Part shown: piece after piece, positions 28,790-28,948 of the stretch
Position numbering within the stretch: position 1 is the first letter of the stretch
How the letters are laid out: every line of letters begins with the position of its first letter
Origin: an uncultured cyanobacterium
GTDB taxonomy: Bacteria; Cyanobacteriota; Cyanobacteriia; Cyanobacteriales; CAWUOF01
Length of the DNA: 64,000 nucleotides
Reading direction: 5' to 3'
NCBI GenBank assembly: GCA_963744145.1
Contig: CAVUSO010000001.1
Span: 1,870,831 to 1,934,830, forward strand
Position numbers and translations under genes: made by a program
Notes under the pieces: model-generated
The model's database searches: none
The model's input: only the letters and a program-made list of their open reading frames with translations
Told to the model about the DNA's origin: nothing

Positions 28790-28948
28790 GACGCAGAACT
28801 GGGCGAAGCATTCGGATCTAATATTAACAGCCCTTCGACTACGCCCTTCGACTCCGCCCTTCGACTACGCTCAGGGCAAGGCTCAGGGAGCACTCAGGGT
28901 AAAATTTAAGTGATAAATGATCGAATGATCGCCCGAATGCTTCGCCCC
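28790..28948 (+). repeat. MITE-like element with terminal inverted repeats GGGCGAAGCATTCGGAT / ATCGCCCGAATGCTTCGCCC, carrying internal CCCTTCGACT(A/C)CGC x3 and CTCAGGGCAAGGCTCAGGG repeats
   Basis: Terminal inverted repeats are read directly from the sequence. A shorter copy with the same termini lies at 36565-36650. Confidence 0.6.

Follow-up and report, generated by a model that had tools for sequence, protein, structure and literature searches.

A very small dispersed hairpin repeat in a cyanobacterial contig and its possible link with small GIY-YIG nuclease genes

How does one short composite motif come to stand within a coding sequence, in the tip of an intergenic hairpin and as a palindrome between genes, all in the same stretch of DNA? 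The question is raised by 64,000 nucleotides of an uncultured cyanobacterium (contig CAVUSO010000001.1 of assembly GCA_963744145.1, positions 1,870,831 to 1,934,830), the whole of which is called the window here. The motif is composed of two kinds of unit, named L (CCCTTCGACTNCG) and R (led by CTCAGGG). An earlier reading of this DNA, made from the sequence only, saw it as an internal part of a MITE (miniature inverted-repeat transposable element) that had been exonised into a low-complexity protein linker. The explanation favoured here, to which we give a probability of about 0.6, is that the window holds an orphan set of copies of a very small pan-bacterial hairpin repeat, which may have spread with small GIY-YIG elements.

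One motif in three settings

The string CCCTTCGACTMCGC has seven matches in the window, compared with 0.12 expected. One setting is the gene for a 564-residue class-A beta-lactamase-related serine hydrolase (17986–19680, forward strand). Here an in-frame L-L-R-R array at 18499–18546, on the same strand, consists of CCCTTCGACTCC twice and GCTCAGGGCAAG twice, both as perfect 12-nt tandems, and encodes PFDSPFDSAQGKAQGK, residues 172–187. The sequence-only reading had placed the composite in frame in the disordered region of this gene, and there it lies: the protein has a disordered N-terminal region, a single predicted membrane helix at residues 207–231, with the insert ending 20 residues before it, and a Beta-lactamase2 domain (Pfam PF13354) at residues 290–500. 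The insert falls in an N-terminal linker that is unalignable and variable in length among homologues, and no other 48-mer of the gene is as rich in GC (66.7%, where the window has 38.7%; top 0.03% of window 48-mers). A comparison of homologues had been suggested to see whether the PFDSAQGK insert is lineage-specific, and the peptide, sought as PFD[SY] or FD.AQG, is in none of the best 120. Composition, absence from these homologues and strong analogy with copies elsewhere support exonisation for the gene copy. It is highly probable that the segment is an insertion of a dispersed repeat, most likely a neutral passenger.

The same composite recurs in an intergenic element, 31 of 36 nt being identical to the gene copy, and 31 of the first 32. 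This host element is present twice, as two MITE-like copies with inverted termini that had already been recognised and whose limits now move by no more than about 10 nt. The long copy, a MITE- or REP-like hairpin (REP, repetitive extragenic palindrome) of 148 nt at 28801–28948 (forward strand), has the arms GGGCGAAGCATTCGG at 28801–28815 and CCGAATGCTTCGCCC(C) at 28933–28948. The short or 'empty' copy, of 67 nt at 36576–36642 (forward strand), has GGGTGAAGCATTCGG at 36576–36590 and CCGAATGCTTCACCC(C) at 36627–36642. The complement of GGGCGAAGCATTCGG occupies 28933–28947 and that of GGGTGAAGCATTCGG 36627–36641, so that the termini are inverted repeats with arms of 15–16 bp. Allowing up to three mismatches, such termini have four matches in the window against 0.08 expected, a number reached by none of 100 shuffles. 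Only spurious open reading frames (ORFs) of 42–60 residues run through the repeat. Each copy folds into one hairpin (long, −28.3 kcal/mol, z = −3.7; short, −18.7 kcal/mol, z = −8.3) and each sits between convergent genes, the long copy between a PHP-domain gene (ending at 28723) and a Tle1-like gene (28969), the short one between a C5-methyltransferase gene (36561) and a GmrSD-like gene (36667).

The two host copies were aligned by eye because a 77-nt insert caused MAFFT to misalign them. The apical loop of the short copy reads ATATTA-GTTCG-TTTAAGTG, and that of the long copy ATATTA-ACAG, then the array, then TTTAAGTG. The long copy is thus the hairpin of the short one with its GTTCG loop swapped for ACAG plus an L-L-L-R-R-R array, together with an 8-nt tandem duplication in the right arm (AATGATCG twice, 28916–28931, forward strand) that the short copy does not have. 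The array (28831–28904, forward strand; GC 65% against 38.7% for the window) shows the three CCCTTCGACTNCG units and three CTCAGGG units reported before. Its L units lie at 28831–28843, 28844–28856 and 28857–28869 (CCCTTCGACTACG, CCCTTCGACTCCG and CCCTTCGACTACG) and its R units at 28870–28881, 28882–28892 and 28893–28904 (CTCAGGGCAAGG, CTCAGGGAGCA and CTCAGGGTAAAA). Because the L units differ at one free position, N (A, C and A), and the three R tails differ as well, nesting of distinct units is favoured over slippage here.

The motif is not an integral part of its host. A plasmid of Allocoleopsis franciscana PCC 7113 carries a 70-nt copy of the host element with the same termini and without any L/R motif. 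The earlier view that the motif is internal to the MITE fails, since the motif is absent from both the short and the Allocoleopsis copies, replaces an apical loop, and is found, between flanks that are unrelated, in at least 15 phyla; this makes it an element in its own right, nested in the host.

The affinities of the host are themselves divided. Its 16-bp arm, GGGCGAAGCATTCGGA, has been published from Microcystis aeruginosa PCC 7806 as the inverted repeat of repeats of 152 bp on either side of a toxin–antitoxin module (PMC7935541). The inverted termini are identical, whereas interior and length differ, and the likeness concerns the host element only, not the L/R motif. No target-site duplication surrounds the host copies, whose flanks (GAACT and TAAGT; AAGAA and TACGC) contain no direct repeat, and GTAG or TTAG stands at the outer end when the other strand is read. 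The host element is therefore as close to a REP-type hairpin as to a classical MITE. On the reverse strand the outer ends are CGTAGGGGTGAAGC (36642), TTAGGGGCGAAGC (28948) and GTAGGGGCGAAGC (Allocoleopsis), all copies being extragenic, and the bases past the short copy read CGTAGGGG on the other strand. No transposase carrying these ends was found in the 64-kb window, and matches to the inverted repeat in viral contigs were chance or coding ones with no partner arm. Logan contigs of the same strain (ERR11571142) break inside the element. The arm of the long copy begins GG-GCGAAGC (28801–28809) and that of the other copy has GTGAAGC (36576–36584), which may be coincidence; GCGAAGC is the classic heptamer that forms a stable DNA mini-hairpin.

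The remaining setting is a palindrome at 55457–55513, unstranded, related to the composite as had been noted. Its forward motif (55469–55488) overlaps an inverted L half (55488–55501), and its 26-nt arms are 92% complementary and extended by a TCGACTA/TAGTCGA duplication. Folded as single-stranded DNA, it reaches −27.1 kcal/mol (z = −8.8). It lies between a histidine-kinase gene (ending at 55197) and a PMT-family glycosyltransferase gene (55720), also convergent, so that convergent gene pairs flank all three intergenic copies in the window. Nesting of this palindrome in the neighbouring repeat of about 190 nt was considered and rejected, as the palindrome begins some 30 nt past the end of that repeat.

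A hairpin repeat across bacterial phyla

The exact 20-mer CCCTTCGACTNCGCTCAGGG, sought in one genome per species, gave at least 120 matches where about four would be expected by chance. Among the matches listed, the hosts span at least 15 phyla, isolates included, with unrelated flanks: Spirochaetota, Verrucomicrobiota, Bacteroidota, Clostridia, Acidobacteriota, Chloroflexota, Patescibacteria, Alpha- and Gammaproteobacteria, Dormibacterota, Armatimonadota, Binatota, Cyanobacteriota, Zixibacteria, Myxococcota and Gemmatimonadota. Viral contigs (IMG/VR) also gave at least 120 matches to the 20-mer, as did metagenomes to the L-L-R form, and plasmid matches include Planktothrix, Nostoc, Pseudanabaena, Sphingomonas and Trichlorobacter. 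The 20-mer has no match in 5,426 complete Escherichia coli genomes, and cultured phages gave chance-level partial matches only. The motif has no Rfam family: the whole window had no match at gathering score, the element region at E values up to 10 gave only a chance snoRNA fragment, and 26 related loci gave only Flavo-1, tRNA and 5S. A sequencing or vector artefact was rejected, since the motif is present in isolate genomes with covarying stems. That the motif is a pan-bacterial dispersed hairpin repeat is, in our judgement, very likely.

The unit, of about 20–27 nt, combines a conserved 14-nt loop, TTCGACTNCGCTCA (TGAGCGNAGTCGAA on the other strand), with a stem of 3–4 bp that is variable but complementary. 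Covariation was examined in 26 copies from the same loci that had not been selected by the search pattern. At one position, the closing pair is CG in 11, GC in 11, AU in one and UA in one, and the covariation score of 0.506 compares with 0.201 for shuffles, none of 500 of which reached it, and with 0.05–0.26 for slid controls. Compensatory changes stand beside the 14-nt core, for example catgc/gcatg, attc/gaat and ggc/gcc. At the free position N, T is found in 40%, C in 28%, A in 18% and G in 14%. The tails fall into subfamilies, CAGGC (16%), TGACA (12%), CGAAC (7%), CAAGC (5%) and TAAAC (3%), the last two of which are resembled by the tails CAAGG and TAAAA of the window. A (C/T)GTC tag accompanies 38 of 265 copies (about 14%); it is regular beside GIY-YIG genes and missing from the window copies. 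Copies stand alone, in inverted doublets (LRl and lLR, 16 cases) or in L^nR^n arrays, where a number n of left halves precedes a roughly equal number of right halves.

Five of the six reading frames of the motif are free of stop codons, and by crude ORF calls about 29% of copies lie within long ORFs, 21 in sense and 16 in antisense orientation. Coding copies use both orientations and all five open frames. Single units are found in Pfam-verified genes, namely a polyketide synthase linker, GH127, E1 dehydrogenase, a Candidate Phyla Radiation DNA ligase, GT4, PrmC, M20 peptidase and ComM; in a PF00144 beta-lactamase the unit comes just after the signal or membrane segment. Arrays of L-L-R-R and longer occur in MutS, 2-oxoglutarate dehydrogenase E1, RecJ, TilS, GH2 mannosidase and NiFe hydrogenase, these too verified by Pfam, and in a sensor propeller protein. 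Judged from these in-frame copies, exonisation of the motif is general across phyla. More of the intergenic copies lie between convergent genes than between divergent ones (23 against 9), and those between codirectional genes are split 24 to 14 in orientation. Between 8 and 17% of copies cap a longer perfect hairpin, against 0.4–5% of controls with permuted flanks; the motif is thus in hairpin tips more often than by chance, and the host element of the window provides one such tip. In Flavobacterium-type loci it is inserted in the variable apical loop of the Flavo-1 RNA (RF01705), some members of which carry it, but as an insertion outside the family consensus.

Alleles that differ by the motif or by its parts give some view of how it comes and goes. 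In the PrmC gene of Flavobacterium (L057, L124, L125 and L126), empty alleles encoding ...ILETEDLEQQ... and filled alleles encoding ...ILEVVTLSAVEGLEQQ... are 18 nt apart, and 120 homologues of 79–100% identity divide about equally between ...NILETEDLEQQFDIIVSNPPY and ...NILEVV(S/T)LSAVEGLEQQFD.... The filled allele reads CTT GAA [GTT GTC TCC CTG AGC GCA] GTC GAA GGG, with 18 nt extra. One empty allele has GTC GAA GAT at the junction, so that GTCGAAG, a microhomology with the end of the motif, is present there. A third allele is the filled one minus a different 18 nt, a footprint. The TilS alleles L192:5117-6718 and L237:3903-5492 differ over 1.6 kb by one mismatch and one 12-nt half-module, and the orthologous loci L209 and L222 have L3R3 and L2R2. 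Among the 120 L-L-R matches listed from metagenomes, the numbers of L and R halves were (2,2) in 47, (2,1) in 44, many of them with a degenerate second R, and (3,3) and (3,2) in eight each. Array length varies in half-modules of 12–13 nt and the number of R halves climbs with that of L halves. Both single modules and balanced pairs are therefore gained and lost. One locus (L178) has CCCTTCGACTGC three times and GCTCAGGGCAAG three times, encoding PFDC and AQGK three times each. On these sequences, the arrays behave like in-frame variable-number tandem repeats in housekeeping genes of uncultured bacteria.

Small GIY-YIG genes and the spread of the motif

A candidate for an enzymatic partner emerged from a Sphingomonas plasmid, on which the motif lies in the 3' end of a gene for a 'GIY-YIG nuclease family protein', with an inverted copy 50 nt upstream. 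A jackhmmer search with this protein, over ORFs of at least 55 residues in 379 loci, recovered five more genes, all PF01541, of which four have motif copies beside them. The motif is found both upstream and downstream of the nuclease gene in L377, L227, L080 and L173, mostly inverted. L227 and L080 have arrays upstream and a copy no more than 7 nt past the stop codon. Inverted flanking of a gene for about 100 residues applies to most of these four loci and also to L429 and L434. In L429, perfect 25-nt inverted copies, TGTCAGGCTGAGCGGAGTCGAAGCC and GGCTTCGACTCCGCTCAGCCTGACA, surround a 117-codon coding sequence between valS and a DUF4241 gene. Peptides of the motif occur in N- or C-terminal ORF extensions of 15 of the best 120 members of the nuclease family, against none of 120 homologues of the serine hydrolase, and the motif was at the gene in all three family members chosen regardless of it. 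Beside the GIY-YIG genes there are also tandem arrays of same-facing copies with periods of 45, 60 and 26–27 nt (L227:1377-1715, L434:379-512 and L080:1266-1550), which differ from the L^nR^n arrays.

The repeats may be pictured, by analogy with REPs or REPINs and their RAYT (REP-associated tyrosine transposase), as non-autonomous progeny or substrates of small GIY-YIG elements. The nuclease would cut the folded motif. The break would then be repaired with other copies as the source, whether by gene conversion, by template switching or by patching at microhomologies, and modules would thereby be added or removed and new copies seeded at sites that resemble part of the motif beforehand. Copies would survive best at the 3' ends of genes, in hairpin tips and in protein linkers. 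The window records three copyings of the motif: into the apical loop of the host hairpin (28831–28904), into an intergenic site as the palindrome (55457–55513) and, very probably, as 48 nt in frame into the hydrolase gene (18499–18546), within the part for a disordered cytoplasmic linker and with PFDSPFDSAQGKAQGK as its translation. The parts of this explanation differ in standing. The GIY-YIG nuclease is a candidate partner, by association. That such nucleases drive the spread of the motif has, in our estimation, somewhat less than an even chance. Slightly more doubtful again is the descent of the family, as non-autonomous progeny, from a pan-bacterial selfish element of about 350–400 bp, whose sole gene would be the nuclease of about 100 residues bracketed by inverted hairpins.

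Several observations weigh against the spread of the motif with GIY-YIG elements, or against parts of that explanation. No GIY-YIG gene is present in the 64-kb window, none of 40 distant GIY-YIG relatives on phage contigs (30–47% identical) has the motif, and all-against-all BLAST of ORFs of at least 120 residues beside 120 motif copies revealed no enriched protein family; for these reasons the link with the nuclease is to be treated as an association. The genes of about 100 residues escaped the neighbour BLAST because of its 120-residue cut-off. More than 80% of copies cap no longer hairpin. In the nearest-neighbour calculation, folding of a single unit is not significant (−3.1 kcal/mol as DNA, z = −1.4), and neither for the single unit nor for the arrays was thermodynamic support obtained from folding. 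The tool has no energy terms for pairs of the sheared G.A type. The TGAGCGNAGTCGAA strand could stack T-A, G.A, A.G, G-C and C-G around a GNA triloop, on a tandem G.A model with the strand d(CCCTGAGCGNAGTCGAAGGG). The heptamer d(GCGNAGC) is a known type of mini-hairpin with such a triloop, and a triloop with an unpaired base would explain the free N. Mimicry of the tRNA T-loop/D-loop, a hammerhead and a K-turn were rejected, as the core positions do not fit them. Insertion into the hydrolase gene is deduced from composition, absence in homologues and analogy, and its perfect 12-nt repeats fit two ordinary slippage events as well as they fit nested insertion. Thus the exonisation proposed in the sequence-only reading stands as to a repeat having been taken into a coding region, given the outlying GC content, the unalignable linker, the in-frame copies in other phyla and the filled and empty alleles elsewhere, and falls short in that an empty-site orthologue of the hydrolase was not found, the closest relative in collections being 62% identical.

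Other explanations have to account for the same features. Two of them derive the motif from one of its settings in the window. If PFDSAQGK were a selected peptide repeat of the hydrolase and the intergenic copies fragments captured from the gene, then 12-nt periods perfectly in frame and the 31/32 identity with the long element would be as expected; but the peptide is seen in none of the best 120 homologues, other proteins read the same motif in five frames, the intergenic array has out-of-frame periods of 13, 12 and 11 nt, and the motif is spread across bacteria with unrelated flanks, so that this possibility is close to refuted. Hardly better placed is the idea that the motif is integral cargo of a cyanobacterial MITE and the gene copy a decayed insertion of it. 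The motif does lie inside one MITE-like copy, the inverted termini of which are clear and match the published Microcystis repeat of 16 bp, but neither the short nor the Allocoleopsis copy contains it, no trace of the arms remains around the gene copy or the 55457 palindrome, and it occurs in phyla that lack this MITE.

The hairpin might instead be a functional RNA module, such as a terminator cap, a stabiliser of mRNA 3' ends or a protein-binding site, that is selected in each lineage, with its coding copies accidental. A covarying stem and a conserved loop are what such a module would show, as is the preference of intergenic copies for convergent sites, shared by all three in the window, and some copies cap terminator-like hairpins and Flavo-1 RNAs. 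However, orientation to transcription is mixed both between codirectional genes and in coding copies, dozens of copies are in frame in housekeeping genes, close strains are polymorphic for presence and for module number, and Rfam has no family for the motif and no match in the window. Its absence from E. coli also means that it is not a universal cellular signal. We regard this as unlikely, and give a similarly low rating to spread without any enzyme, in which an unusually stable single-stranded mini-hairpin would stall replication and be copied from site to site through template switching or through illegitimate recombination of the short-patch kind, its passage between phyla would be by way of environmental DNA, and GIY-YIG genes would merely collect copies nearby. 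The microhomology already present at the PrmC target, the half-module slippage alleles, the lack of a family enriched beside random copies, the motif-free GIY-YIG relatives on phage contigs and the fit of the free N to the unpaired base of a GNA triloop all agree with such spread. It is nevertheless hard to see how 14 loop bases could be kept constant over at least 15 phyla without a partner that recognises them, and the folding tool shows no special stability. The inverted copies exactly around the coding sequence in L429 look like the ends of an element, and mostly inverted copies on both sides of the gene recur in unrelated taxa.

Spread with small GIY-YIG elements, if true, would supply an 'orphan' class of REP-type repeats with the enzyme it lacks. 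The presence of the same peptides of 8–16 residues (PFDxAQG, PSTxLRA, LRLRSG, LSxVEG, PERSRR and those of L^nR^n arrays) in housekeeping proteins from many phyla would then be explained too, and a low-complexity peptide of a membrane-anchored serine hydrolase would be accounted for as translated selfish DNA. A single 20-mer found in at least 15 phyla is a source of variation in protein linkers, of spurious ORFs and of breaks in assemblies. Two features, the balanced L^nR^n arrays and the bracketing of GIY-YIG genes, offer a concrete and testable approach to the movement of repeats of about 25 nt, a question that has stood open since REPs, CGTC repeats and the Nostoc repeats discussed below were described.

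Known repeats and other features of the window

Selfish palindromes that are inserted in frame into coding genes and translated, as the motif is, are familiar from the Rickettsia palindromic elements, to which PMC3733652 also refers. RPE-1 is 100–150 bp and confined to Rickettsia, unlike the pan-bacterial unit of 20–27 nt. The small dispersed repeats (SDRs) of Nostoc, reportedly described by Elhai et al. in 2008, are said to be of 21–27 nt, with a conserved core and pairing flanks, and to nest in MITEs and other repeats. They resemble the motif in these traits, and their reported absence outside Nostocaceae (PMC5861425) does not fit a pan-bacterial motif. The REP/REPIN and RAYT system (Nunvar 2010; Bertels & Rainey 2011, PMC3116915) likewise has non-autonomous hairpins, inverted doublets and a candidate enzyme gene itself flanked by inverted repeats, but its enzyme is an HUH/Y1 transposase rather than a GIY-YIG nuclease of about 100 residues, and REPINs, in contrast to the motif, are lineage-specific and essentially extragenic.

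A further likeness in the literature is to the superfamily of CGTC/TGTC-tagged REPs in Alphaproteobacteria, Bacteroidetes, Chlorobi, Spirochaetes and Thermotogae (Di Nocera, De Gregorio & Rocco 2013, PMC3733652), which 'apparently lack a dedicated transposase'. They are mostly head-to-head dimers, lie downstream of genes and between convergent genes, and have intragenic copies in DNA-repair and tRNA-related genes (PMC3733652). The motif shares the dimers, the convergent and downstream positions and the intragenic copies, and a subset of its copies also has the (C/T)GTC tag and an A:T first stem pair. The stems of CGTC REPs, however, are perfect, conserved in sequence and of 8–9 bp, with loops of 4–5 nt, whereas the motif has 3–4 variable Watson–Crick pairs and a conserved 14-nt 'loop'. 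The motif thus falls outside the definition of CGTC REPs by stem and loop, and its stem could be stretched to nine 'pairs' only if two of them were G.A and a bulge were allowed. The L^nR^n arrays, the identity of sequence across phyla and the GIY-YIG bracket are features of the motif that are not described for CGTC REPs (PMC3733652) or in searchable open-access texts. In open-access full text, neither the DNA and RNA strings of the motif nor its encoded peptides were found, the host inverted repeat led only to the Microcystis paper, and nothing tied COG2827/UPF0213/YhbQ or GIY-YIG to REPs or MITEs.

The hydrolase gene has a history of its own. Its upstream region and first 131 or so codons are duplicated with 99% identity (13012–13520 and 17873–18380), the truncated copy being ORF 13125–13607, and the duplicates flank an insert of about 4.3 kb (island 13796–17853). 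The insert contains two ATPase pairs, AAA_15/AAA_21 with DUF4435 (13796–15151 and about 15148–15999) and AAA_15/AAA_21 with DUF3226 (16105–17193 and 17197–17853). The former pair has the architecture of PARIS-type defence systems, and the insert looks like a defence islet placed in the 5' region of the hydrolase gene.

The window has other small repeats, and shows that such repeats come to be nested at the tips of each other's hairpins. A second hairpin repeat of small size, GGACAGGCAAGATGCCTGTCC(CAC), has at least 12 copies, often in inverted pairs (8106, 33412, 33476, 51217–51337, 55261, 55564–55640, 58329 and 58456). The repeat of about 190 nt near the palindrome has three copies (33341–33543, reverse; 55305–55427; 58423–58596), one with an extra 21–23 nt, GTAGGACAGGCATCTTGCCTGTC, which is another tiny hairpin nested in a larger repeat. 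A GTAG-tagged REP-type palindrome, GTAGGGGCGTATTGCAATACGCCCCTAC, occurs five times (6065–6097, 6804–6836, 12062–12094, 12235–12267 and 27819–27851), and it has its first 9 nt (GTAGGGGCG) in common with the host element's outer end as read from the opposite strand. Two of its copies flank transposase-like ORF fragments at 12086–12572, and a Logan contig with ArgJ stops about 65 nt past that gene, approximately at the 27819 copy.

The genome has the marks of its lineage: the HIP1 (highly iterated palindrome) octamer GCGATCGC is present 54 times in the window against 0.27 expected, and the best homologues of window proteins are from Oscillatoriales-type filamentous genera. Between the two host copies, an ORF of 877 codons (30684–33317, forward strand) has Vault, Vault_2/3/4 and MVP_shoulder matches, taken from the precomputed Pfam matches of an identical Logan contig, and is by these domains a homologue of the major vault protein in a cyanobacterium. 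A segment of about 270 nt is duplicated with 96–98% identity (33559–33824 and 35048–35338), its second copy lying just upstream of the C5 DNA methyltransferase gene (35512–36561), and contains 22–23-nt tandems of ATAGAATTTTATACGCTCACAAG, repeated 2.7 and 3.7 times (33669–33728 and 35158–35242). Large direct repeats of two families (D2 and D3), 97–98% identical and about 3.1–3.6 kb apart, lie at 58107–59132 and 61201–62772.

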